Below are positions 6,730-25,956 of a DNA stretch of 64,000 nucleotides, one piece after another. The DNA is from a bacterium. Its GTDB lineage: Bacteria > Patescibacteriota > JABMPQ01 > JAUVWW01. Each line of letters opens with the position of its first letter. The first letter of the stretch is position 1. The position numbers and the translations under genes are program-made. The stretch spans positions 70,716 to 134,715 of the forward strand of contig JAUVWW010000001.1 of assembly GCA_030603885.1 (NCBI GenBank), written 5' to 3'. A model generated the notes under the pieces. It searched no databases and had not been told where the DNA came from. It saw only the letters and a list, made by a program, of their open reading frames with translations.

Positions 6730-7737
6730 ATGTTTGTTAAAAAAGTAGGCATAGACTTAGGTACTGCTAACACCCTAGTCTGTATTCCAAAAAAGGGAAT
6801 CATAATTAATGAGCCCACAGTGGTGGCTATCTCTTTGGATGATAATAAAATTTTAGCTGTAGGTATAGAAGCAAAAGAGATGTTGGGCCGAACCCCAGAA
6901 ACTATTGTAGCTTCTCGACCTATGAAAGATGGGGTTATTGCTGATTATAGAATTACAGAGGCTATGCTTAGATATTTTATAGGAAAAGCTTTGGGAAACG
7001 TAAGATTTTTTAGACCTGAGGTTATGGTTTCTGTTCCAGCTGGAATTACTTCTACAGAAAGAAGAGCAGTTATTGATGCCACTATGCAAGCAGGAGCCAG
7101 AGCTGCCTATATCATAAAAGAACCAGTGGCAGCTGCTATTGGAGCGGGAATTCCCATAGCCGAGTCTTCAGGTAATATGGTTATCGATATTGGAGGAGGG
7201 ACAACAGAGGTAGCAGTTATTTCTTTGGGTGGAGTTGTAGCCTGTGATTCAGCCAGATGCGCAGGAAATAAACTAGATCAGGCTATTGCTGAATATATCC
7301 GTAAAAAACATGGTCTAGCTATTGGAGAGCGAACTGCGGAAGACATTAAAATAAAGATTGGCTCAGCCTTGCCTCTGGAAAAGGAAGGGACCATGGAGAT
7401 TAAAGGTCGAGATATGGTGGCTGGCTTACCTAAAACTATTTCCATCACATCTAATGAAGTAACAGAGGCTATGCAAGAAAACTTGAGGACTATTATTCAG
7501 GTAGTAAAGAACGTCTTACAGGAAACCCCTCCCGAGCTATCAGCCGATGTGATTAATAAAGGAATGGTTTTAACTGGAGGTGGGGGGTTATTGAAAAATT
7601 TAGATAAGTTAATGACTAAAATAACCGGAGTTCCTTGCTATGTAGCCGATGATGCTCTTTTGTGTGTAGCTAAAGGGACGGTAATTGCCTTAGAACATTT
7701 AGATTCATATAAGAGGAGTGTACTTTCGACGAAGTGA
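6730..7737 (+). CDS. mreB: rod shape-determining protein MreB (paralog 1)
   Basis: Actin-fold phosphate-1 motif IDLGTANTLV and the conserved MreB core (DIGGGTTEVAVISLGG). Confidence 0.9.
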   Translation: MFVKKVGIDLGTANTLVCIPKKGIIINEPTVVAISLDDNKILAVGIEAKEMLGRTPETIVASRPMKDGVIADYRITEAMLRYFIGKALGNVRFFRPEVMVSVPAGITSTERRAVIDATMQAGARAAYIIKEPVAAAIGAGIPIAESSGNMVIDIGGGTTEVAVISLGGVVACDSARCAGNKLDQAIAEYIRKKHGLAIGERTAEDIKIKIGSALPLEKEGTMEIKGRDMVAGLPKTISITSNEVTEAMQENLRTIIQVVKNVLQETPPELSADVINKGMVLTGGGGLLKNLDKLMTKITGVPCYVADDALLCVAKGTVIALEHLDSYKRSVLSTK

Positions 7738-9956: not shown

Positions 9957-11009
9957 ATGAAAAAACTTATTGTGCTACTATTACCTATCTCCATTCTCTT
10001 TGTCTTTTGTGGTATCACTTGTCGAAGAGCACCCGAGGCAGCCGATACTGGAATCTTTAAAAGTATAAATTCAGGAGAAGATTGGAAACAGATAGCAAAA
10101 CTTAATGAAGAAGAAAGTATTGCTCAAGTAAGTGTTATTACTATAACCGTCGATCCGATCGATCCTAACGTTATATTTTTAGGAACAAAAGGAGATGGTG
10201 TGTTTAGGACAGAAAATGGAGGTGAGAATTGGATGCATACTCCTCTTTCATCTGGAGAATTTTATTCTATAGTAGTGGATCCTTCAGATGATAATATAGT
10301 ATATGCTGCTGGATTTCCTCAAGACAGAGGTAGGGTATATAAATCAAGAGACAGAGGAGTAACTTGGCAAGAAATATATACTGAGACCCATGAAGGAAGT
10401 AAAGTTTTAACACTAGCCATTAATAGAGATAGACCTAATGAAATCTATGCCGGAAATACCGAAGGAGCTATATTTAAAAGTCAAGATGGTGGAGAAAGTT
10501 GGGTAGTAGAAAAGTGGATGGATGAGAAAGCAGTAAAACAAGTTATATTTGGGCTAAAAGATACAAATAAAATCTATGTGGTTACAGAGACAGGTTTACA
10601 TAAAAGCTCAAATGGAGGCAAGGACTGGACTGATCTAACTAAAAATTTTGAAAGATTTAAAGAAGCAGATAGAATTTATGGCATAGTGGGTGATCCTTAT
10701 TATGATGATGGATTGTTTTCTGCTTCGGCCTATGGATTACTCAAGTCTACAGATGGAGGAAAAACCTGGAAAGAGATACAGCTTTTAGTAAGGCCAGGTA
10801 CATCGGTTTTGGCTTGTGTGGTCAATCCTCAAGACTCAAGACAGATTTATCTTGGTTTGGGTTCTACATTATATAAATCTACTGATGCTGGAAGAAATTG
10901 GACGACTCGTCACATTACGAATAACATTATCCGAGCTTTAGCTGTTGATCCAAAAACTCCATCTATTATCTATTGTGGGGTGGAAGTGAAAGAAGAAGAG
11001 GAGAAATAA
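9957..11009 (+). CDS. secreted BNR/Asp-box repeat beta-propeller protein
   Basis: Signal peptide. At least 7 S-x-D-x-G-x-T-W-type Asp-box repeats (SINSGEDW, TENGGENW, SRDRGVTW, SQDGGESW, SSNGGKDW, STDGGKTW, STDAGRNW). Confidence 0.75.
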   Translation: MKKLIVLLLPISILFVFCGITCRRAPEAADTGIFKSINSGEDWKQIAKLNEEESIAQVSVITITVDPIDPNVIFLGTKGDGVFRTENGGENWMHTPLSSGEFYSIVVDPSDDNIVYAAGFPQDRGRVYKSRDRGVTWQEIYTETHEGSKVLTLAINRDRPNEIYAGNTEGAIFKSQDGGESWVVEKWMDEKAVKQVIFGLKDTNKIYVVTETGLHKSSNGGKDWTDLTKNFERFKEADRIYGIVGDPYYDDGLFSASAYGLLKSTDGGKTWKEIQLLVRPGTSVLACVVNPQDSRQIYLGLGSTLYKSTDAGRNWTTRHITNNIIRALAVDPKTPSIIYCGVEVKEEEEK

Positions 11010-11026
11010 CACAATACAAATCGTAC

Positions 11027-11584
11027 ATGTATAAGGATATAATCGATTCTATAAAAAAAGAATGTGACAAAGCTTTTGATTATCTTAAAAAGGAATTGGC
11101 GGTCCTCAGAACAGGACGAGCCTCGAAAGCTTTAGTTGAAAATTTAATGGTGGATTATTATGGAACAAAAACTCCTCTATTTCAGCTTGCTAGTATTAAT
11201 GTTCCAGAAGCTCGTTTGATCATTGTCCAACCCTATGATAAGAATTCCATTAAAGATATAGAAAAGGCTATCTTGGGCTCTGAATTGGGACTTACTCCAA
11301 ACTTAGAAGAAAATATTATTAGGATTACCATTCCTCCTTTGTCTGAAGAAAGAAGAAAAGAATTGGTTTCTATCTTGCATCAGAAATTGGAAGAAGTAAA
11401 AACATCTATCAGAAATCACAGAGAGGAAGCCTGGAGAAAAATTAAAGAGCAAGAGTCTGAAGGATCCTTAACAGAAGATGAAAAGTATAAGGCTAAGGAT
11501 GAGCTAGATAAGCTAGTCAAGGAATATGACGATAAAGTAGATGAAATAGGGGAGGCAAAAGAAAAGGAAATCATGACAGTCTAG
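11027..11584 (+). CDS. frr: ribosome recycling factor
   Basis: RRF signature throughout (LAVLRTGRAS...IIRITIPPLSEERRKEL). I chose the ATG at 11027 (MYKDII...) over the overlapping upstream ORF-track start. Confidence 0.9.
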   Translation: MYKDIIDSIKKECDKAFDYLKKELAVLRTGRASKALVENLMVDYYGTKTPLFQLASINVPEARLIIVQPYDKNSIKDIEKAILGSELGLTPNLEENIIRITIPPLSEERRKELVSILHQKLEEVKTSIRNHREEAWRKIKEQESEGSLTEDEKYKAKDELDKLVKEYDDKVDEIGEAKEKEIMTV

Positions 11585-14135: not shown

Positions 14136-15188
14136 ATGTTTGATAAATTATTTGGATCACTATCAAAAGATCTAGGAGTAGATTTGGGCACTGCTAATAC
14201 CCTGGTTTATGTTAAGGGAAAAGGCATTGTCATCAACGAGCCTTCGGTGGTAGCTTTTAATAAGAAGACTGGACAGATTTTGGCCATTGGAAACGAAGCC
14301 AGAAAAATGGTAGGAAAAACCCCTGCCCATATCGTAGCTTCAAAACCTTTGGTAGATGGAGTAATATCTGATTTTGAGGTAACGGAAAAAATGTTGAGAT
14401 ATTTTATAGAAAAAGTGCAAGGGGAAGGATTTTCTATTTTCCCAAAGCCCAGGGTAGTCATTGGTATTCCTCTAGGGGTAACAGAAGTAGAAAAAAGAGC
14501 GGTTGAGGATGCGACTATCTCTGCTGGAGCAAGAAAAGCTTACCTTATTGAAGAACCTATGGCTGCAGCTATAGGAGCCAGACTTCCGATTCAAGATCCA
14601 GCAGGATCTATGATTGTAGATATAGGAGGAGGAACTTGTGAAATAGCAGTAATATCTTTGGGCGGGGTAGTGACCTCAAAATCTTTGAGGATTGCTGGAG
14701 ATGAAATGGATCAAGATATAATTCAATTTGCAAGAGATAGCTATAACTTGCTTTTAGGAGAGAGAACAGCAGAAGAAATTAAAATAGCCATTGGTTCAGC
14801 CCATGAATTAAAAGAACCTCTTGAGACTATGATGCGGGGAAGAGATTTAATTACTGGACTTCCTAAAGAAGTAAAAATTAATGATCAAGAGACAAGAGAG
14901 GCACTTTCTAGAACCGTTCATCTTATAATCACTGCTATTAAAGATACTATTGAGGCTACTCCGCCAGAGCTGGTAGCTGATATTATGAAAAAGGGTATAG
15001 TTATGACCGGCGGAGGCTCTTTGCTTAAAGGTTTTGCTCAACTTGTTCAAGAAGAAACTAGGATGCCAACACATTTAGCCGAAGATCCTTTGACTTGTGT
15101 AGTAAGAGGATGTGGAGTTGTACTCGAAGATATTGATACTCTAAAAGAAGTGCTGGTTGCCACCCAGTATGAAAAACCATTAAGGTAA
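14136..15188 (+). CDS. mreB: rod shape-determining protein MreB (paralog 2)
   Basis: VDLGTANTLVYV and DIGGGTCEIAVISLGG motifs. It lies directly upstream of mreC. Confidence 0.9.
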   Translation: MFDKLFGSLSKDLGVDLGTANTLVYVKGKGIVINEPSVVAFNKKTGQILAIGNEARKMVGKTPAHIVASKPLVDGVISDFEVTEKMLRYFIEKVQGEGFSIFPKPRVVIGIPLGVTEVEKRAVEDATISAGARKAYLIEEPMAAAIGARLPIQDPAGSMIVDIGGGTCEIAVISLGGVVTSKSLRIAGDEMDQDIIQFARDSYNLLLGERTAEEIKIAIGSAHELKEPLETMMRGRDLITGLPKEVKINDQETREALSRTVHLIITAIKDTIEATPPELVADIMKKGIVMTGGGSLLKGFAQLVQEETRMPTHLAEDPLTCVVRGCGVVLEDIDTLKEVLVATQYEKPLR

Positions 15189-16013: not shown

Positions 16014-18803
16014 ATGACCAAAGAAAAAGCTAAGAAGAAAATCAAAGAACTTGTTAAAGATTACGAAGGTATAAAAAAGAGAGGTGAGGTTGGGTTATAC
16101 AAAGAAGAGACTACGAAACAACGATTTATTCAGCCTTTATTTAAAGCTCTGGGTTGGGATTTCAAAGTTGATGTTTGGCCCGAGGAAAAGGTTTCTAAAG
16201 GCAGGGTAGATTACGCTTTTAAATTAAATAACATTACTAAGTTTTTTGTAGAAACGAAATCATTGAAGATAGGTTTAGATAATCCCGACTATGATAAACA
16301 AGTAATTAACTATGGTTGGCTTAAGGATATAACCTGGGTGGTCTTAACTAATTTTGAGGAGTTAAAAATCTTTAATTCGGAATTGAAAGAAGAAAACCTA
16401 GTTCTTGATTTAACTTATGATAGATATTTAAAAGATTTTGATGATCTTTGGCGTTTAAGTAAAGAAGCTTTTATAAAAGGAGAACTTGATAGATGGGCAG
16501 AAAAATATGGCAAGAAAGCCAAGAGATTGAAAGTAGGAGAACAACTTTTTGAGGATTTATTACAATGGAGAAAATTTTTATCTGATAATGTATATCAGCT
16601 TCTAGGTTTATCAAAAGAAGAGATCAGTGAGGGGGTTCAGAGAATTCTGGACCGCCTTATTTTTATAAGAACTGCTGAAGATAGGGGGATAGAAGAAAAG
16701 ATTTTACTTCCCAAGCTAAGAGAATGGGAAGATAAAGGACGTAAGCAAGAATTTATGGAAGTCCTTAGTAAGGTTTTTAGAGATTTTGATGAAGGATATA
16801 ACAGTGAATTATTTGATCATCATGACTGCGAGAAGTGGGGGTTGGGAACAGAAGTTTTAGAAAAAGTAGTTAAAGGATTGTATAAAACCAAAGATGGTTT
16901 GGATTATGATTTTAGTGCTATTGGTAGTGATGTGCTGGGTGGAATCTATGAGCAATATTTAGGACATTTATTAGAGACGATTAAAGGAGAAACCAAGGTG
17001 ATTAGTGGCCGTGCCAAACGCAAAGAAAAGGGAATTTATTATACCCCTAAATTCATCGTTGATTATATTGTTAAAAATACTTTAGGCGAAGTTTTGAAAA
17101 ATAAGAAACCAAATGAGATAAGGAAGTTAAAAGTTTTAGATCCGGCTTGCGGCTCTGGATCATTTTTACAGAGAGCTCATCAAGAGATTGTTGATTACTT
17201 AGAAGAAAAGAAATCAGAAATCAAAGATGAAAAGAGTAAACTTGGTGCTATCGCTAAATTAATAAAAGAAAAAGAGGGCAAAAAAGAACTTTCTGTAGCT
17301 CAAAAAATTGAGATTTTAAGAAATAATATTTATGGGGTAGATCTAGATCATCAAGCAGTGGAGATTGCTCGTTTAAATTTATTATTAAAGGTTCTTAAAA
17401 AGAGACAAAGACTTCCTTTACTTGATGATACTATTAAAGAAGGTAATTCTTTAATTTCTGGAGATGAGAAAGAGTTGAAGAAATATTTTGGAGATAAATG
17501 GAAAGAGAAAAAACCTTTCAATTGGAAAGAGGAGTTTGAGGAAGTTTTTAGACAAGAAGGATTTGATGTGATTATTGGAAATCCGCCTTATGTGGGTTCC
17601 TTAGAGATTTCAAAAACAAGTTCGAAAGGAGAAAAGGATTATCTCAAAGAAAAATATAGATCTGCTCGTGGCGTTTACGACTTATATGTAGTGTTTTTAG
17701 AAAAGTCCATCAGATTACTTAAAGAGAAAGGATTGTTAGGGTTTATAGTTCCAAATAAGTTTATGTCTACAGATTATGGATTCCATCTCAGAAAATATAT
17801 CTTGGAGAAATGTTCGATAAGAGAAATAATTGACGTGTCTAGTTTGTCTGTGTTTAAAGGAGTGGCAGTCTATCCAATAATCCTCATTTTACAAAAAGAA
17901 AAAAGAAAAAAATATAGGGATAGAAATCAACTTTTATTTAATGAACTAGAAAATATTAATAAATTAGATTTTAAAGAAGGTAGATTAGTTCACCAATCTA
18001 TCTTTACACGAAATAATAAATATGTATTTAGTAGTTTTATTAGTGAAGGTATGATAGGATTGATAAAAAAATTTGAGAAACATACCATTCCATTATGCAA
18101 AGTTTCTGACGTTAGTAGTGGCACAACCGGTTTTGATTATTCAAGATATGGAAAGTTGATTACAGAACAGAAGCCTGAAAAAGAATATAGAAAATTTATT
18201 ATCACGCGTAATATTGAACCCTATTATATTTCCTGGGGTAAAAGAATAAATTATTTAAAAAGGTCTTTCATTCATCCATATCTAGCTTATAGCAAAAAAA
18301 TTATTTCGAAAGGCAAATGGGATCTTTTTAAAGACAAAAAAATTACAATTAGAGGCCTATCAAAAAGATTAACTGCCGCTGCCGATAATGAAGGTTTTGC
18401 TTTAGGGGTAGGAGTTTACGCCTTAAGAAATTTGAAGATTAATAAGAAATTTCTTTTAGCTCTCTTAAATTCAAAGGTTCTAGATTATTATTATCGGGTA
18501 AAGTTCTCTTCAAAGCATCTCGCTGGTGGTTATTTGGGCTTTAATGTAGGACAACTTTCCCAGCTCCCTATTTATAGAATTGATCTCTCTAAAAAATCTG
18601 ATAAGGAAAAACATGACAAACTGCTTAGATTAGTAAATAAGATATTAGAATTAAATAAAGAATTACAGAAGTTTGGAGACAAGATTACAGATAAAAGAAA
18701 AAAGATCGAGAAAGAAATTGAGAGGACGGATAGGAAGATTGATGGGGTGGTATATAAATTGTATGGATTAACTAGAAAGGAGATTAAAATAGTGGAAAAT
18801 TGA
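16014..18803 (+). CDS. MmeI-family Type IIG restriction endonuclease / N6-adenine DNA methyltransferase (single-chain RM)
   Basis: N-terminal PD-(D/E)xK motif with D66...E80-x-K82 (VDYAF...VETK). AdoMet motif I (VLDPACGSGSFL). Motif IV NPPY (IIGNPPYVG). A C-terminal TRD-like region. 929 aa, which is MmeI-like size. Confidence 0.85.
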   Translation: MTKEKAKKKIKELVKDYEGIKKRGEVGLYKEETTKQRFIQPLFKALGWDFKVDVWPEEKVSKGRVDYAFKLNNITKFFVETKSLKIGLDNPDYDKQVINYGWLKDITWVVLTNFEELKIFNSELKEENLVLDLTYDRYLKDFDDLWRLSKEAFIKGELDRWAEKYGKKAKRLKVGEQLFEDLLQWRKFLSDNVYQLLGLSKEEISEGVQRILDRLIFIRTAEDRGIEEKILLPKLREWEDKGRKQEFMEVLSKVFRDFDEGYNSELFDHHDCEKWGLGTEVLEKVVKGLYKTKDGLDYDFSAIGSDVLGGIYEQYLGHLLETIKGETKVISGRAKRKEKGIYYTPKFIVDYIVKNTLGEVLKNKKPNEIRKLKVLDPACGSGSFLQRAHQEIVDYLEEKKSEIKDEKSKLGAIAKLIKEKEGKKELSVAQKIEILRNNIYGVDLDHQAVEIARLNLLLKVLKKRQRLPLLDDTIKEGNSLISGDEKELKKYFGDKWKEKKPFNWKEEFEEVFRQEGFDVIIGNPPYVGSLEISKTSSKGEKDYLKEKYRSARGVYDLYVVFLEKSIRLLKEKGLLGFIVPNKFMSTDYGFHLRKYILEKCSIREIIDVSSLSVFKGVAVYPIILILQKEKRKKYRDRNQLLFNELENINKLDFKEGRLVHQSIFTRNNKYVFSSFISEGMIGLIKKFEKHTIPLCKVSDVSSGTTGFDYSRYGKLITEQKPEKEYRKFIITRNIEPYYISWGKRINYLKRSFIHPYLAYSKKIISKGKWDLFKDKKITIRGLSKRLTAAADNEGFALGVGVYALRNLKINKKFLLALLNSKVLDYYYRVKFSSKHLAGGYLGFNVGQLSQLPIYRIDLSKKSDKEKHDKLLRLVNKILELNKELQKFGDKITDKRKKIEKEIERTDRKIDGVVYKLYGLTRKEIKIVEN

Positions 18804-18843
18804 TATGAGAAACGCTATCCAAAGTTGGTAAAAATAATTTTTT

Positions 18844-19671
18844 ATGAAGTTTGATTTGAGAAACTGGAAATATCCCAATTTAAAAAAGTTTCTAGAAAAT
18901 CCTTTAACTATGGAAGGTTTAGATTATGATTTTAAAGAAAAAATACCAGATACTAGAGATGAAAAAGGGAAGCGAAGATTAAGAGAAAGTTTTTGTGCTT
19001 TTGCTAATAGTGATGGGGGTTATATATTTTTTGGAATAGATAACAATAAAAGACCTAAAGGAATATATGAGAGCGATTACGAATTTGAAACAAAACTTAA
19101 CAGAATTGTAACTAAAAAGATACTTCCCTCGATTCCTGTTTCAAATTGGCAGATCGCAAAAGATATTAATTTGCCAAGATCAGATGGAGTAGTGTTTGTA
19201 GTGCATATTTTCCCAAGTTTGAGTATCGACAAACCCCATATGACGTCTGAAAGAATTTTTATAAGAGAGCATGGGGAAACTAAGGCGCTAGATGATGGAA
19301 GAGATGTCCAAAAATTATTTGCTGTGAAGTTTAATCGTTATAACATCAAAGAATTAGAATACGACTTAGAAGAGATTAAGGAATGTAGGTTTACTCCTGA
19401 TGAGATAGATGTAATTTATTTAAAACAGTTAAAACATTATTTAGAAAACCAGATTAAGAAGAGAATCCCTGGGTTTCATAGTTTAGATTCTAAGTTAGAT
19501 AGGATCATGCAGTTGTACGAAGAGATAAAGAAAGAAATGTCTGAGGGATATAGAACAAATCAGGCTTCTAACGTTCTGAATAGTGAGAAGTTAATGAAGA
19601 AAGAAGGTTTATTAGGTTCTTCTGTGAAAGAGTTTTTAAAAGAATACAAAAATCTACATAACATACCATGA
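18844..19671 (+). CDS. AlbA_2 / Schlafen-like domain protein
   Basis: Core SFCAFANSDGGYIFFGIDNNKRPKGI matches the AlbA_2 signature (AFANt-GGyliiGvdd...G). Its stop overlaps the next start (ATGA). Confidence 0.7.
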   Translation: MKFDLRNWKYPNLKKFLENPLTMEGLDYDFKEKIPDTRDEKGKRRLRESFCAFANSDGGYIFFGIDNNKRPKGIYESDYEFETKLNRIVTKKILPSIPVSNWQIAKDINLPRSDGVVFVVHIFPSLSIDKPHMTSERIFIREHGETKALDDGRDVQKLFAVKFNRYNIKELEYDLEEIKECRFTPDEIDVIYLKQLKHYLENQIKKRIPGFHSLDSKLDRIMQLYEEIKKEMSEGYRTNQASNVLNSEKLMKKEGLLGSSVKEFLKEYKNLHNIP

Positions 19672-22600
19672 GTAAACAGGGTCAATACAATTACAGCGGA
19701 ATAAATTTCCAATCCTGGGCAGCAATGTCGTTGTTCTTGCAGTATTTGCGTGATTCTGATTTCTCACATATTTATTTGGAAGCCCCTGAGTTTCAAGATT
19801 TCAATTTAGTTTTTAATGATGGGAGAAAAATTATTTGCGAAGCAAAAAGTTGGAAGAAGAAATTTAGTTTTGCTGACTTAAGAAAAATTCTTACCTCTAT
19901 ACTAGATAAAGAAAATATAGGCAAAAATGATGAAGTTCTGATAATTTGCAGAAATTTAGATAAGAAATTAGAAAAAAAAGTTGAAAATATTAAATATTTT
20001 AGAGAGATCATTGCCCCTTATTTTAATAAGGAAAAGAGATTTTCAAAAGAAGAAATTGAAGTTTTACCTAAAGTAAATTTCTGGAAAGTTTCTGGAAAGA
20101 TTAATGAAAAAATCATATATTCCCTTTTTAGTGAATTATTGAATTTCTGGATACCAGAAGAAGATTTGAAGAGGATAGTAGACAGTATTTTAATGCAAAA
20201 AATTTATAAATGTTCTGCCAAGGGAACAGCATTTACAAGAATAGATCTTTTAATGGAAATAGAAAGTTTAAAAAGAGAGGTTATTGAGAAAAGCGGTGAT
20301 TTCGATGAAAATAGAAGGAAAATCGAAGATCAGCTTAAAGATGTGATCAAAGCAATTAAAGATAATAAATCATTAGTATGGACTCATGGCAGAGTTTCTG
20401 CACTTTCTGCTCAGCCGAATTTAATGTATTTTGTACTCCAAAAGTTTAAAGAGAAGAAAATTGATAAACTTGAGGACTGGAAAGACTTATGGGAGCTTAA
20501 TAAAGTATATGCGTTTTCTTTCGATATATTTAAAATTTTCGAGAGCAATCTTCATAACAGGAAAAACAGGGTATACATTTTAAAATTTATTAGAGAGAAT
20601 CTCCTGGGCTTTAGAAGGTTTTTTAGATCAGACTTCTTTGAAATGGGTGTAGTAAAAATTATGAATGGAGTCATAGAACAAGATAAAACTTTGCTTAATG
20701 AAGCTTTTGAAATTGTAAAGGAATTATTAAAAAGATACGAAAATGAATACTTCTATCTTAAAAGTAATCAAGATTCAGAATGGAGAAGAGGAGAAATTTG
20801 TAAATTACTTAAGAAGATTTATGAGAATAGCGATGAGAGTCTAAAAAACAGAATTTATGAATTAATAACTAATCATTTCAATCTAATTGCAGATGATAGC
20901 GAGTTTAGTTATTATACTCCCGAAGTTGTATTTAAAATTTTAGAAAATTGCTTAACAGATGGTTGGAATAAATTTGAAAAAAGATTTATTGAATTAAGTA
21001 AAATTTTAGCGGAGCAATATGAAAAGTTTTACAAGCGATTTGGTAAAAAAACAAAATTCAAGGGTTGGGAATTAATGGGTGGAGTAACTACGTCTTGGGG
21101 CCATGATTATAAAGTAATAGATAGACACTTTATTAGATTTACTTTAAAACCCGCATTAGGGAAATATTATAAAACTAACAAAAAGAGATGTTGGTCTTTT
21201 GTGATGGGAGAGTGTATTTCAACTACAAACAGAGTTAGTAGAAAGGGTCCTGATTTTTTGAATCGTGCTTCAGTTTCTATTATTTTGGATAGGTATAGAA
21301 ATAGAAATGCCAAAGTATCTAATAAAGCTTTTAGGATACTAAAAGAGTTTATTTTATCGTGGAAAGGCATACCTCATAAATCCGATTTAATTTATCAGGA
21401 GCTCCGCGGAGATTTCTCAGATGATAAGAAATGGAAATTAGTAAAAATAAGCATTGATAAATATAAACTGCCCATTAATTCTTTCGTGGAACAGATTGTT
21501 TTGGAGCTAGCTAAAAAGAGACATAAAAAATCAAAGGAAATATTGAGAGGTTGGATTAGAGATCCGAAGTATTATAAAAGAGGAATTTTTGAAAGAAATG
21601 TAATTGTAAATATTTCTCAATTTTTAGATGTTTCGTTTAATGAGGGGGTAGAGATGTTTAAGGATTTTATTAATGGAGATTATTTTCTAAAGAAAATGGA
21701 TTATTTTAATGCTTTTGAGGCAGCAAGAGTATTAAATAAAATTATAGATAGAAATTTCAACACAGGGTTAGAAATTCTCGAAACCTTATCTCAAAAATTA
21801 AAATTAACCGATAACGAACAAATTTTATTGTGTAGTAGCTTGACTGACAAAGACGATTCTAAACAAGAAAATAAAAAGGTTTTAATAAAGATTTATGAAG
21901 AGTTTTTGGGTCCATTCTTAGATAGTTTAGATAATGATATTAAAAAAATTGAAAAGAGAATTACTCGGCCACAATCTAGAGAAGCAATTGTAGAATTTGC
22001 TGATGCCCTGGTTAAACATCAGAAAATTCCAGAGGCAATGAGAATAGTAAGATTGTTTGTTAATGATTCTGATCCTTGTACTCCGGAGAAGGTCGATTCT
22101 GAAGATCTCAAGGGAGAATATGATAAACATAAACAAATTGAGCAAGGCGAAGATACTCTTACTATTAATACTGTAAGAGGTCGGTGTGCTTGGGTATTAA
22201 TGAATTGTGCAGTTTTGGCTGGTAGGGACCATATCGAGGAAATTATTAATTTAACAGAAAAATTAACAAAAGACAAAAATTACTATATTCAATGGATGTC
22301 TTGCCATTCTTTATCTCAATTAGCAAGAAATCGGCTTACAATAATGCCTGAAAATAAAAAAGAACTATTCTTTAATAAAGATAGAGAAAAAGCATTGAAA
22401 ATGGCTAAAAGAGTTGAAAAAATCGCTTTTGAATTATTAGAAAAATTCTCTAAGCTAGGACCCAAGCCAAGAGATGTTTTGATGAGAGCATTACTAAAAG
22501 TATTTGATCATATAAGAGGATTAAACCAGAAAGATGCAAGATTATTACTAAAGAAAATTTCCAAATGCGGAGAGAAAGTTTTTAGTGAAGCCGCTCCATT

Positions 22601-23300
22601 GTTTATTTACTTTGCTGAATTTAGACAAAAAGATTTTAAGAATTGGAAATGGCAGATGCCAGAATTATACGATGATTTGGAAAATTTCGACAATAAAGAA
22701 TTCCAAAAGTTTTTAGAAAATATTCTTAAGAAGAGAAATTCAAAAATTAATTCTCATTTTGCTTGGCGTTTCTGGAAGCTTACAAAGGAATCTGTGTCGG
22801 ATAAGGCAGATATAAAAAATGTGGTTAAATATAGCGAAGCATTCGAAATATCCGACAGATATTTGAATATTCTTTCAGATAGCTACGACCATCAAACATT
22901 TAAAAATATTTATTACTTTATTCGAGAGAATGTTGATAAGCGATTTAAAGAGTGTTATAAACTTTGGCGAAAGTGCCTAGCAAAAGAAAAGCCTGTTATG
23001 GAAAAGTTAATAAAAGAGGAGAAAATATACGAAACATCTTGGTGGCCATTTTATCATAACGACGAAATCTTAACAATCATCAAACAAAAAGCTGGTAATA
23101 AAGAATTTTTGAATTCTTTTGAATTTTTATTGAATTATCCAAATGAGGCTAACATTGGTGATATAAAAAATGTAGTCGAAGTTTTGCAGAGTTTACCATC
23201 CAAGTATAATCAGAGAGTAGAAAAAATCTTTGAAATGTTGATAGATAGAGATCCAAATTTCTATGACATAAAAGAAAGCTGGGTAGAAAGAGAGAAATAG
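19668..23300 (+). CDS. large (1210 aa) uncharacterised protein: N-terminal PD-(D/E)xK-like motif plus a long alpha-helical repeat body, no P-loop
   Basis: N-terminal GINFQSW...IYLE...DFNLVFNDGRKIICEAKSWKK, a D...E-x-K arrangement reminiscent of DUF4297/NERD-type nucleases. No GxxxxGK[ST] anywhere. K/E/L-rich helical sequence throughout. Confidence 0.6.
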   Translation: MSKQGQYNYSGINFQSWAAMSLFLQYLRDSDFSHIYLEAPEFQDFNLVFNDGRKIICEAKSWKKKFSFADLRKILTSILDKENIGKNDEVLIICRNLDKKLEKKVENIKYFREIIAPYFNKEKRFSKEEIEVLPKVNFWKVSGKINEKIIYSLFSELLNFWIPEEDLKRIVDSILMQKIYKCSAKGTAFTRIDLLMEIESLKREVIEKSGDFDENRRKIEDQLKDVIKAIKDNKSLVWTHGRVSALSAQPNLMYFVLQKFKEKKIDKLEDWKDLWELNKVYAFSFDIFKIFESNLHNRKNRVYILKFIRENLLGFRRFFRSDFFEMGVVKIMNGVIEQDKTLLNEAFEIVKELLKRYENEYFYLKSNQDSEWRRGEICKLLKKIYENSDESLKNRIYELITNHFNLIADDSEFSYYTPEVVFKILENCLTDGWNKFEKRFIELSKILAEQYEKFYKRFGKKTKFKGWELMGGVTTSWGHDYKVIDRHFIRFTLKPALGKYYKTNKKRCWSFVMGECISTTNRVSRKGPDFLNRASVSIILDRYRNRNAKVSNKAFRILKEFILSWKGIPHKSDLIYQELRGDFSDDKKWKLVKISIDKYKLPINSFVEQIVLELAKKRHKKSKEILRGWIRDPKYYKRGIFERNVIVNISQFLDVSFNEGVEMFKDFINGDYFLKKMDYFNAFEAARVLNKIIDRNFNTGLEILETLSQKLKLTDNEQILLCSSLTDKDDSKQENKKVLIKIYEEFLGPFLDSLDNDIKKIEKRITRPQSREAIVEFADALVKHQKIPEAMRIVRLFVNDSDPCTPEKVDSEDLKGEYDKHKQIEQGEDTLTINTVRGRCAWVLMNCAVLAGRDHIEEIINLTEKLTKDKNYYIQWMSCHSLSQLARNRLTIMPENKKELFFNKDREKALKMAKRVEKIAFELLEKFSKLGPKPRDVLMRALLKVFDHIRGLNQKDARLLLKKISKCGEKVFSEAAPLFIYFAEFRQKDFKNWKWQMPELYDDLENFDNKEFQKFLENILKKRNSKINSHFAWRFWKLTKESVSDKADIKNVVKYSEAFEISDRYLNILSDSYDHQTFKNIYYFIRENVDKRFKECYKLWRKCLAKEKPVMEKLIKEEKIYETSWWPFYHNDEILTIIKQKAGNKEFLNSFEFLLNYPNEANIGDIKNVVEVLQSLPSKYNQRVEKIFEMLIDRDPNFYDIKESWVEREK

Positions 23301-23461
23301 GGATGGTTCTATTTTTCTAGATCCACTCACCAAAAAATCCCCTCCCTAACGTACCAATCTTTTAAGCTCCACAAAGAATCAAGAGAATTAATTGAGGAGG
23401 CGAAGAGGGAGGTGGAAAATTTAATTAAGAAATAATTTATGGAAATTTCAAGATAAGTTAC

Positions 23462-23995
23462 ATGAAAACTTTTTTCTTCATCCTCAGCCTCGTTTTTGTT
23501 ATCCTCCTTCAGGTAGCTTTTTTGCCTCATTTTACTTTATATCAAGCTATACCTAATTTAATCTTGGCAGTTCTTGTTTCTTGGTGTATACTTCAGAGTT
23601 ACAATCAAGCTTATGTATTAGCTTTCCTAGCGGGCCTATCTTTGGATCTTTACTCCGGAACTTTGTTTGGAATACATACTCTGACGCTAGTTTGCGTAGC
23701 CTTGATTACTTATTTAATTACTCAGCATTTTCTAAATAAAGACGATTTATTTACTAGACTAATGATAATTATTTTGGCTACTTTAGGCTATCAGTTTATA
23801 TTTTTAGGCTTTACATTTTTAGCCAAGCTATTACACTTAGTGGATTACAGTATCCCTTTATCCAACCAATATCTTGGTTTTCTTCTCTGGCAAATTCTAG
23901 TTAATGCTATAGTTTTACTTATAATTTTCCCTATGATAAAAGCTAGCCATAATTTTTTGCTGAGACATGAAAAGAGGGCAAGAGTCGAAGTATAA
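23462..23995 (+). CDS. mreD: rod shape-determining protein MreD
   Basis: Five-TM small protein with an MreD-like AFLAGLSLDLYSGTLFGIHTL motif. It lies immediately upstream of PBP2. Confidence 0.75.
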   Translation: MKTFFFILSLVFVILLQVAFLPHFTLYQAIPNLILAVLVSWCILQSYNQAYVLAFLAGLSLDLYSGTLFGIHTLTLVCVALITYLITQHFLNKDDLFTRLMIIILATLGYQFIFLGFTFLAKLLHLVDYSIPLSNQYLGFLLWQILVNAIVLLIIFPMIKASHNFLLRHEKRARVEV

Positions 23996-23997
23996 AC

Positions 23998-25956
23998 ATG
24001 ACTAATATGAAGGATCCATTTTCAACACCCAACTATCTTTCAGACAAAGAATCAAAAGGCAAAAAAATTACTCCTTCCAAGAGAGGGGATGAGTGGGAGG
24101 AGAGTCTTTTTGAAACAGACGAAGAAGAGGAAGTAAGAACTGTTCAACCTCTTTTTAATTATGCCAAAATAAAATGGCTGTATTTAATAGCCATTTTAGT
24201 CTTTTTAGTCCTAGCAAGTAGAATTTTTTATTTACAAGTTGTAGCTTCTGATGAATTCAGGCAGGCAGCTGAAGAAAATCGTTTTAGGGTCCATGTTATT
24301 CGGGCTCCCAGAGGAATAGTTTTAGATAGCCAAAGAAACCTTTTGGTTCGCAATATTCCTAGTTTTGATATTATAGCTATTCCAGCTGATCTACCCAAGG
24401 ATGAAAATGATAGGAGACAACTTTGGTCTACCTTAATGTCTAAAATTGACATTTCACAAGATGAACTAAACCAAGCTCTTTTAGATATAAATTATACTTC
24501 CTGGCAACCTATTTTGATTAAAAAGGGTATCCTGAGAGATCAAGCCTTGATTTTAGAAACTCAACTTCAAGATCTCCCAGGCATAGTACTAGAGAAAAAT
24601 CCTATCAGAGAATATTCTGAGGCTGAGTTTTTTGCTCACATCCTAGGCTATACTGGAAAAATTAGTCAGGAGGAATTAGAAAAAAGAGAAGATTATTTAC
24701 TAAACGACTACATAGGAAAATCAGGGCTGGAGTTATATTATGAAGATACTTTACGAGGAAAGAATGGGAAAGAGCAAGTGGAAGTGGCAGCTGGAGGTAA
24801 GCAGGAAAGGATTTTAGCTACAGAAGAGCCTATAACTGGTAGTGATTTGGTTCTATCGATAGAGAGAGATTTACAGAAAAAGATGCATGAACTTCTGAAA
24901 AATGGAATGGTTAAAGCAGGGTCCTCCAAAGCAGCTGCCATAGCTTTAGATCCCAGAAATGGTGAAATTTTAGGAATAGTTAGTCTTCCTTCTTATGATA
25001 ATAATTTATTTGCCAAAGGTATTAGTGAGGAAGACTACCAAAGATTAGCTCAGGATCAAGATCGACCTCTTTTCTCAAGAGATATATCCGGAACATATCC
25101 CCCTGGTTCTACTATAAAGCCAGTTATGGCGGCAGCAGGATTACAAGAGGGTGTAATTACCAGAAATACCATTATTAATGATACAGGCGTTATTACTGTG
25201 CCTCATGAATATAATCCTGATATTACCTATACTTATTACGGCTGGGCTAGAGGAGGGCTTGGTCCAATGAACGTAATTTCTGCTATTGCTAAGTCTTCGG
25301 ATATATATTTTTATACTGTAGGAGGAGGGCAAGAATCTTTGGGAATTAAAGGTTTAGGAGCAGAAAAAATTGCCGAATATTTTAAAAAATTTGGACTAGA
25401 GTCTAAGCTAGGCATTGATTTACCCAATGAAGCAGAGGGTCTTGTTCCTACTCCAGAGTGGAAAGAGAAAGCAAAAGGAGAAATGTGGTATTTAGGAAAT
25501 ACCTATCACGAGTCTATTGGACAAGGGGATGTACTAGTAAGTCCTCTGCAAGTGGTTTCTTGGACAGCAACCATTGCCAATGGAGGAAGATTATATAAAC
25601 CTCATCTAGTTAGACAAATTATTAACCCTGATGGTTCTACCCAAAATACTCAACCAGAAGTTATTCGATCAGATTTTATTTCAAGTTATAACATCAATTT
25701 GGCCCGCCAAGGAATGAGAGAAGCAGTCCTTTCGGGTTCAAGCGTAGCTTTAACTGATTTACCTATTGCAGCAGCTGGAAAAACAGGCACGGCTGAAACA
25801 GGCAAAGGAACTACTCATGCCTGGTTTATCTGTTTTGCTCCCTATGAAAATCCAGAAATTGCTCTTGTAGTTTTAATTGAAAAAGGAGGAGAAGGACACG
25901 AAACAGCAGTGCCTATAGCTAAAGAAATTTTGAAATGGTGGTTTGAGAATAAATAA
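23998..25956 (+). CDS. mrdA: penicillin-binding protein 2 (peptidoglycan D,D-transpeptidase)
   Basis: N-terminal TM, a PBP dimerisation domain, and transpeptidase motifs STIKP (SxxK), SSD/SxN region and KTGTAE (KTG). Confidence 0.88.
   Translation: MTNMKDPFSTPNYLSDKESKGKKITPSKRGDEWEESLFETDEEEEVRTVQPLFNYAKIKWLYLIAILVFLVLASRIFYLQVVASDEFRQAAEENRFRVHVIRAPRGIVLDSQRNLLVRNIPSFDIIAIPADLPKDENDRRQLWSTLMSKIDISQDELNQALLDINYTSWQPILIKKGILRDQALILETQLQDLPGIVLEKNPIREYSEAEFFAHILGYTGKISQEELEKREDYLLNDYIGKSGLELYYEDTLRGKNGKEQVEVAAGGKQERILATEEPITGSDLVLSIERDLQKKMHELLKNGMVKAGSSKAAAIALDPRNGEILGIVSLPSYDNNLFAKGISEEDYQRLAQDQDRPLFSRDISGTYPPGSTIKPVMAAAGLQEGVITRNTIINDTGVITVPHEYNPDITYTYYGWARGGLGPMNVISAIAKSSDIYFYTVGGGQESLGIKGLGAEKIAEYFKKFGLESKLGIDLPNEAEGLVPTPEWKEKAKGEMWYLGNTYHESIGQGDVLVSPLQVVSWTATIANGGRLYKPHLVRQIINPDGSTQNTQPEVIRSDFISSYNINLARQGMREAVLSGSSVALTDLPIAAAGKTGTAETGKGTTHAWFICFAPYENPEIALVVLIEKGGEGHETAVPIAKEILKWWFENK

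Follow-up and report, generated by a model that had tools for sequence, protein, structure and literature searches.

Gene organization of the insert

We analysed 64,000 nucleotides (nt) of DNA from a bacterium of the Patescibacteriota (contig JAUVWW010000001.1, positions 70,716 to 134,715; hereafter the window, to whose full length of 64 kb all positions refer), in which the cell-shape operon mreBCD-mrdA is interrupted between mreC and mreD by three genes lying on the + strand (Table 1). These encode a Type IIG restriction-modification enzyme (gene 1), a small Schlafen-type protein (gene 2) and a protein of 1210 amino acids (aa; gene 3), and the last two, referred to below as the pair, are the main subject of this study. 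The open reading frame (ORF) map agreed exactly with the gene coordinates given for this three-gene island in a first-pass annotation made from the sequence alone, and searches of Pfam and NCBIfam confirmed the flanking genes. The C-terminus of MreC is complete, with relatives aligning up to residues 262-264 of 264, and the mreC stop directly abuts the first start codon of the insert (taaATG), an arrangement already described in that annotation and visible in the junction sequence. In addition, the ATG of gene 3 and the stop of gene 2 overlap by 4 nt. The bounds 16014-23300 originally assigned to the island hold for the span of the genes but fall short of the end of the insert; since mreC and mreD overlap or sit 2 nt apart in relatives, we took the insert to extend to 23461 (16014-23461), thus including a spacer downstream of gene 3.

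Neither insert junction contained a terminator-like site. We found no tRNA in the 64-kb window, no direct repeats flanking the insert junctions and no integrase in or beside the island (the whole window was not scanned for one), in line with the first-pass annotation, and Pfam detected no recombinase domain in the three genes, such that the attributes of an integrative island (an integrase or recombinase, a tRNA target and direct repeats) were lacking.

Table 1. Features of the insert and of the flanking mre genes
Feature	Position	Strand	Evidence
mreB	14136-15188	+	Pfam and NCBIfam (confirm flanking genes)
mreC, left flank of insert, intact to last residues	15219-16013	+	Pfam MreC, 155 bits; NCBIfam TIGR00219, 151 bits
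Gene 1, Type IIG restriction-modification enzyme, Eco57I-like, 929 aa	16014-18803	+	Pfam, PADLOC, motifs
Gene 2, predicted prokaryotic Schlafen (AlbA_2) nuclease, 275 aa (variable partner)	18844-19671	+	Pfam, phmmer, motif
Gene 3, 1210-aa protein	19668-23300	+	ORF map
Gene 3, predicted Cap4/HamA/LmuA-type PD-(D/E)xK N-terminal domain, about residues 1-240	19668-20387	+	Conserved E38/D44/E58/K60
Gene 3, predicted all-alpha HEAT/ARM-like solenoid, about 970-1000 aa	20388-23300	+	AlphaFold2 model, Foldseek
Spacer of 161 nt, part of insert, 44-codon open frame	23301-23461	+	mreC/mreD spacing in relatives
mreD	23462-23995	+	NCBIfam shape_MreD, 67 bits
mrdA/PBP2, followed by folD	23998-25956	+	NCBIfam pbp2_mrdA, 580 bits

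Products of the three genes

Judging from its domains and motifs, the product of gene 1 is a complete, self-contained and ordinary Eco57I-like Type IIG enzyme. The protein matched the Pfam models Eco57I (162 bits), N6_Mtase (93 bits) and TaqI_C (47.6 bits), with a match to HSDR_N (24.8 bits) just under the cut-off, and scored 466 bits against the PADLOC model REase_MTase_IIG. An N-terminal PD-(D/E)xK nuclease signature (D66...E80-x-K82), a gamma-class N6-adenine methyltransferase with the S-adenosylmethionine motif VLDPACGSG at 374 and NPPY at 523, and a TaqI_C target-recognition domain are present in one polypeptide, as is typical of Type IIG; the full architecture is that of Eco57I-like enzymes, from which it differs in nothing notable. 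The first-pass annotation was therefore correct as to Type IIG but too specific in naming the MmeI family, which we ruled out because the methyltransferase part alone matched an MmeI model (MmeI_Mtase, 56 bits, below the stronger Eco57I match) and Pfam gave no match to MmeI_N, MmeI_hel, MmeI_TRD or MmeI_C at E<=0.01. BREX and DISARM were also rejected, as the PglX and DrmMI models matched through the shared methyltransferase domain only, the NCBIfam PglX models scored far under their cut-offs, and no other BREX (PglZ, BrxC, BrxL) or DISARM (DrmA, DrmB, DrmC) components were present. Gene 1 has more than 7800 homologues at E<=1e-50, many of them in Patescibacteria and archaea. One relative, with 48% identity, is followed in locus L105 by a gene for a 272-aa protein (10694-11512) that overlaps it by 4 nt; this protein had no Pfam match but contains the motif RNCVVH (Rx4H, HEPN-like) and may represent another nuclease at the 3' end of a restriction-modification gene.

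Gene 2 is predicted to encode a prokaryotic Schlafen nuclease with an intact predicted motif, as its earlier description as AlbA_2/Schlafen-like had implied. Residues 24-149 matched Pfam SLFN_AlbA_2 (PF04326) with 70.5 bits (cut-off 25.3), and phmmer matched structure chains of the mammalian Schlafens 8, 12, 5 and 11. The catalytic-type motif E24-GLDY-D29-F-K31 fits the Ex4(E/D)xK motif defined for phage-defensive bacterial Schlafens (Perez Taboada et al. 2026, PMC13056530), and the domain is followed by a tail of about 125 aa without annotation. Prokaryotic Schlafens (pSlfn) are phage-activated tRNases, and 69.6% of their genes have a known defence gene no more than 10 kb away (PMC13056530). 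Gene 2 resembles them in its PF04326 domain, its Ex4(E/D)xK motif and its surroundings of defence genes; however, 97% of the pSlfn carry a sensor as a fused domain (PMC13056530), whereas the product of gene 2 is small and coupled to the separate 1210-aa protein. A near-repeat of 29 nt (83% identity; 16886-16914 and 18906-18934) encodes GLDYDF both in the Type IIG enzyme and in the Schlafen catalytic motif, and is probably due to chance in AT-rich DNA.

The 1210-aa protein had no sequence match in Pfam, NCBIfam, PADLOC or PDB, and neither did a profile of its N-terminus. It belongs to a family of more than 120 full-length homologues sharing 35-70% identity (323 representatives at 50% clustering), of which the few with a named source come from the Patescibacteria group (Daviesbacteria, Parcubacteria), Margulisbacteria, Armatimonadetes and Deltaproteobacteria, all being annotated as "hypothetical protein". 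According to the structural model, the N-terminus (the head) is a Cap4-type defence effector nuclease of the PD-(D/E)xK fold, which sharpens the previous notion of a nuclease-like N-terminus. The head was similar in fold to Cap4, HamA and LmuA, with a D...ExK active site, the comparison figures being 15.4 for Acinetobacter Cap4, 14.3 for Hachiman HamA, 14.1 for Lamassu LmuA and 12.4 for Avs3, versus about 7-8 and below for restriction endonucleases. Residues E38, D44 and E58 are invariant across the family, and K60 is invariant in alignment A2 (50 sequences) and conserved in at least 90% in A1 and A3 (62 sequences). A search of 50 N-terminal domains against PF14130 (Cap4_nuclease) gave no match at E<=0.1.

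The remainder of the protein was modelled as a solenoid. The full-length AlphaFold2 model had a pLDDT (predicted local distance difference test) of 87.5 and a pTM (predicted template modelling score) of 0.62, and Foldseek comparison of this model returned generic solenoids only, for example CAND1 and karyopherins, with TM-scores of 0.13-0.35; no Walker A/P-loop was found in the 1210-aa protein. The solenoid is the conserved core of the family, with a mean column identity of 47% across phyla and conserved patches at residues 451-600 and 751-900. Two variants, P0181 and P0198, have an XRE-type helix-turn-helix added N-terminally, and forms of about 1000 aa seem to be without the head.

Conservation of the pair and exchange of the small partner

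We collected about 90 loci containing a relative of the 1210-aa protein, which were dereplicated to 66. In 66 of the 74 listed loci with upstream sequence, a co-directional gene encoding about 100-400 aa overlaps the large gene or stops no more than about 100 nt short of it, with an overlap of 4 or 8 nt in most cases. As seen from gene order and sequence relationship, the Schlafen and 1210-aa genes thus represent a conserved, unnamed two-gene unit, which substantiates the earlier suggestion that the two are an uncharacterised system. No description of the pair was found in the literature, which is weak evidence given the limited coverage of papers.

The partners were gathered from the collected loci; a word-based homologue search with the Schlafen partner gave one relative only. 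They fell into at least five families (about 180-400 aa) without detectable mutual similarity, namely the Schlafen type as in the window (21 loci), f2 (about 300 aa, 18 loci), f3 (about 200 aa, 12 loci), f4 (about 265 aa, 9 loci) and f5 (about 365 aa, 5 loci). Family f4 matches Pfam Cap4_nuclease (PF14130, 27.8 bits) and the PADLOC LmuA/HamA models, and was linked to the head of the large protein by hhalign only (E 1.8e-4, probability 48%); most of the partner families showed no significant mutual similarity by hhalign. An invariant signature of the D...(E/Q)xK type is present in every non-Schlafen family, and in the Schlafen type the Ex4(E/D)xK motif is largely kept (among 18 such partners, the first E was present in 17 and the K absent in two), so that all the partners look like nucleases. 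Unlike the described pSlfn, the Schlafen type therefore shares the partner position with at least four other nuclease families, with which it is interchangeable.

The small partner is readily exchanged. When each large protein was compared with its nearest relative of less than 90% identity, the partner family agreed in only 28 of 66 cases, and swaps of family were observed between large proteins 80-89.5% identical. Moreover, a partner domain of f2 or f5 is fused to the solenoid, replacing the Cap4-like head, in L035 (4316-8155), P0208, P0172 and P0205, suggesting that the partners work on the solenoid.

Rapid, toxin-like swapping of families, translational coupling with the small nuclease gene first, and the XRE-type helix-turn-helix in some members of the large family, as in autoregulated toxin-antitoxin or defence operons, might also be explained by an addiction module stabilising the restriction-modification cassette, in which the small nuclease is the toxin and the large protein the antitoxin or inhibitor. 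We regard this as quite unlikely, since a 1200-aa antitoxin with its own conserved catalytic nuclease motif would be atypical and no relative of the family was found in IMG/VR contigs, PLSDB plasmids or GenBank phage records, where addiction modules are common. Many toxin-antitoxin-like systems are themselves abortive-infection defences, so that this explanation overlaps with the defence module proposed below.

Position of the pair relative to restriction-modification genes

We found that the pair sits preferentially behind restriction-modification genes, at the 3' end of their operons, whatever the type of system. Among the 66 dereplicated loci, 46 had at least 1.5 kb of sequence upstream of the partner gene, and in 31 of these a gene for restriction-modification or for a methyltransferase was located no more than 3.5 kb upstream, almost always in the same orientation, whereas such a gene was found downstream in only two of 38 loci (Fisher p 1.6e-9). 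The gap to the partner gene was 50 nt or less in 14 of the 46 loci and in two more loci with less upstream sequence. The upstream systems comprised Eco57I-like Type IIG enzymes, Type II methyltransferases of about 500 aa, hsdR-hsdM-hsdS, Type III mod and res, a PLD-SNF2 helicase with a methyltransferase, and HpaII. For example, in L101, whose large protein is the nearest to that of the window (70% identity), the upstream place of the Type IIG enzyme is taken by a type III system, suggesting that the type of restriction-modification system is exchangeable but its position fixed. A conserved and directional neighbourhood of this kind follows the logic of PrrC and PARIS. Based on the first three contexts, the restriction-modification gene could be taken as an incidental neighbour, an interpretation that was reversed by a survey of 80 loci; similarly, the first-pass annotation had set the pair apart from the restriction-modification gene, and the pair itself stands but the separation does not, because restriction-modification genes followed by the small nuclease gene and then the large gene are a recurrent arrangement.

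This arrangement would also be expected if the three genes worked as one extended, methylation-dependent system of self/non-self discrimination, such as BREX or DISARM, in which the pair is the restriction arm and both nucleases attack unmarked invader DNA or RNA. In favour of this, about two thirds of the loci have a methyltransferase-containing gene immediately before the pair, in the same orientation and often overlapping; in L084, L086 and L040 this gene encodes a methyltransferase of about 500 aa alone, with no nuclease domain; and both proteins of the pair are nuclease-like. Nevertheless, L001 and L007 have at least 9 kb of upstream sequence without a methyltransferase, most of the upstream systems are already complete (hsdR-M-S, mod and res, or fused IIG), the class of methyltransferase varies (gamma N6_Mtase versus beta N6_N4_Mtase) even between relatives 70% identical, and the partner in the window has an RNase-type Schlafen fold, which together make such a restriction arm unlikely. 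A narrower possibility, that the partner is the endonuclease of an upstream Type II methyltransferase, was rejected as a general explanation, because the partner is retained beside type I, III and IIG systems that are complete, as well as where a locus has no methyltransferase.

The other neighbours of the pair are mostly defence genes as well (nSTAND3, SIR2, TIR, GmrSD, Gabija-like and DUF262-Schlafen). A further possibility is that the three genes are independent systems sharing a defence island, with no functional connection. Defence genes do cluster in general, as the above figure of 69.6% for prokaryotic Schlafen genes illustrates (PMC13056530), and most members of the very large Type IIG family occur without the pair. 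Random clustering within islands, however, would not give the asymmetry between upstream and downstream positions, the overlap of the partner and large genes is kept across phyla, and fusion proteins exist; we therefore consider independence highly unlikely.

Several of the neighbouring genes merit description. A protein of about 695 aa, in which GmrSD_N (DUF262) is fused to a Schlafen domain, is encoded directly downstream of the large gene in L025, L035, L036, L037, L039 and L079; its architecture is that of EcoSlfn7, which has been validated experimentally, and some islands therefore hold two Schlafen nucleases. In L039 and L069, Gabija-like genes, encoding a 548-aa OLD-family ATPase-TOPRIM protein and a 367-aa UvrD-like helicase, are located between the upstream methyltransferase and the pair. 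Genes of cluster c7 recur in eight loci, at most a few kb from the pair (L063, L070, L077, L047, L074, L087, L089 and L095); the representative, from L063, is a large serine recombinase (Resolvase, Recombinase and Zn ribbon domains), and the island in the window has no such gene. In L025, a Mutator-family transposase lies directly upstream.

Possible function of the pair

The data may be best explained, with a probability of about 0.6 for the explanation as a whole, by a horizontally acquired block of defence genes inside a cell-shape operon, consisting of an ordinary Type IIG enzyme and a second-line, abortive-infection-type module of two nucleases. The pair is built from known effector types and follows a known sensor-effector logic, and it is probably a new anti-phage module. 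In such a module, the solenoid would act as a sensor or scaffold holding both nucleases silent until restriction has failed or been inhibited, or until another phage cue is received. The Schlafen partner would then cleave tRNA, as other bacterial Schlafens do (PMC13056530), and the Cap4-like head would attack DNA in the manner of CBASS, Hachiman, Lamassu and Avs3, and the resulting stop of translation and replication could serve as a second, abortive-infection-type line of defence behind restriction. The logic of this mechanism is modelled on PrrC with EcoprrI, on PARIS and on the effector-plus-HEAT-sensor design of DSR2. Going further, we tentatively suggest the possibility of an unnamed anti-phage family in which a HEAT-solenoid protein with a Cap4-type DNase docks interchangeable nucleases and which evolved as a guard at the 3' end of restriction-modification operons, firing when restriction is blocked or bypassed.

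Several observations weigh against this explanation or parts of it. No restriction-modification gene was found within 3.5 kb upstream in 15 of the 46 loci, indicating that the pair can stand alone, and the downstream tally used recurrent gene clusters only, so that it may under-count restriction-modification genes. Downstream of the closest homologues of gene 1 (65% and 48% identity), the pair is absent. The solenoid is evenly and fairly strongly conserved, unlike fast-evolving sensors of phage proteins, a pattern more in keeping with a conserved ligand than with a rapidly changing phage protein, and hhalign gave no shared C-terminal docking region among the partner families. The second-line role is drawn by analogy. 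Finally, the related genomes in which the mre operon could be compared are distant, and an old insertion that has since become fixed is possible.

Comparison with known defence systems

In design, the 1210-aa protein resembles DSR2 (PMC11263360), which likewise consists of an N-terminal effector enzyme followed by a HEAT-like solenoid of about 1000 aa and has no nucleoside triphosphatase (NTPase); the solenoid of DSR2 binds a phage protein and thereby switches on the SIR2 effector (PMC11263360). The effector is, however, a SIR2 NADase in DSR2 and a predicted Cap4-type nuclease here, no sequence similarity was seen, and Pfam gave no SIR2 match in the 1210-aa protein, placing it outside DSR2. 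The pair also differs in having a second nuclease in trans and in its link to restriction-modification operons. By analogy, therefore, the pair may at most work like DSR2 without being a member.

Effector nucleases of the Cap4/HamA/LmuA/Avs3 type, to which the head is predicted to belong, occur in CBASS, Hachiman, Lamassu and Avs, but the module studied here has no SAVED/CARF, helicase, SMC or STAND NTPase partner. Membership in CBASS, Avs, Lamassu or Hachiman was accordingly rejected, as the island has no cognate sensor gene (SAVED/CARF, STAND NTPase, SMC LmuB or HamB helicase, respectively). Upx, a single-protein, dual-nuclease defence of 1212 aa (PMC13099982), is similar in length, in PD-(D/E)xK chemistry and in having two nuclease activities per system, but the test for a sequence or profile match together with a C-terminal canonical PD-(D/E)xK nuclease was negative, and the pair was not assigned to it.

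With respect to genomic context, the pair resembles PrrC-EcoprrI, PARIS and the HEPN RNases (PMC3710099), in which restriction-modification operons of many types contain, or end with, a gene for a nuclease that could stop translation. At least 16 clades of HEPN RNases are linked to restriction-modification and have been proposed to be second-line, suicidal back-ups (Anantharaman et al., PMC3710099). The pair is nonetheless unrelated to these, having no ABC ATPase, HEPN or Toprim domain.

Phage defence by bacterial Schlafens was shown only in 2025-26, and those described hold the sensor in the same polypeptide. The locus studied here points to the Schlafen protein as one of several plug-in nucleases for a large conserved solenoid protein that lies outside Pfam, NCBIfam and PADLOC. 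The pair is also a testable candidate for a general back-up layer behind restriction, an idea resting so far on few cases (PrrC, PARIS); if this is true, it would represent an "anti-anti-restriction" layer that is independent of restriction type and has been encountered to date chiefly in uncultured lineages, Patescibacteria among them. The family occurs mostly in Patescibacteria and other uncultured phyla, the immune repertoires of which are poorly known.

The insert within the mre operon

The guanine-plus-cytosine (GC) content of the insert is 30.6%, compared with 35.3 ± 0.8% in other 7.4-kb windows of the region (minimum 33.7%), making it the lowest-GC stretch of the 64 kb, and its dinucleotide delta* is 91 versus 35 ± 11 for the other windows. 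The GC content at third codon positions did not differ from the rest, indicating that the shift sits in codon positions 1 and 2. Composition thus agreed with the view of the segment as an accessory island.

A scan for MreC in one genome per GTDB species found 11 loci. We found that mreB, mreC, mreD and the PBP2 gene were contiguous in all 11, mreC being followed directly by mreD, and that none of their mre loci contained the island genes; the split is therefore not a conserved core arrangement, and its earlier description as unusual holds. The closest relatives, L010 and L011, are metagenome-assembled genomes of Parcubacteria/Patescibacteria, with identities of 41-43% for MreC and 71-72% for MreB, which points to a Patescibacteria-like source for the window. 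Exact-sequence searches with MreC and the 1210-aa protein returned no contig. The gene order RseP, aminoacyl-tRNA synthetase, MreB, MreC, MreD and PBP2 is common to the window, L010 and L011, and extends to FolD in L011 as well; in the two relatives, mreC and mreD overlap by 4 nt or are 2 nt apart.

Since there is no gap after mreC and no predicted terminator, transcription from the mre promoter probably continues into the cassette. The same features, together with the common strand, could be taken to mean that the island genes have a housekeeping or morphogenesis role. Such a role is hardly credible, as none of the 11 relatives has these genes in its mre operon, mre genes occur in none of the about 90 homologous loci, and every domain is of a nuclease or methyltransferase type that is typical of defence systems; consistent with their initial description as unrelated to morphogenesis, profile searches assigned no housekeeping function to the three genes. 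A defence cassette acquired by horizontal transfer remains the explanation that we favour, and the insert shows that an essential morphogenesis operon can tolerate such a cassette, which is probably transcribed there. Its location in mreBCD-mrdA is mainly a curiosity, secondary to the pair itself.

The 44-codon frame in the spacer, which ends ...KESRELIEEAKREVENLIKK before its stop codon, had no significant match (best E about 0.2-1.4), and may represent a decayed gene remnant, or nothing; its best, insignificant matches were the C-termini of Eco57I/TaqI_C methyltransferases in L039, L069 and L099. A promoter-like pair of hexamers, TTTGCA-16-TATAAT, is located at 23183-23210 on the + strand, inside the 3' end of the large gene and about 250 nt before mreD, and could restore expression of mreD-mrdA; it is only a match to the consensus, of a kind that is no commoner here than in shuffled sequence. 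In addition, a second MreB paralogue is encoded at 6730-7737, about 6.4 kb upstream of the mre operon, and is 50% identical to the mreB product of the operon.

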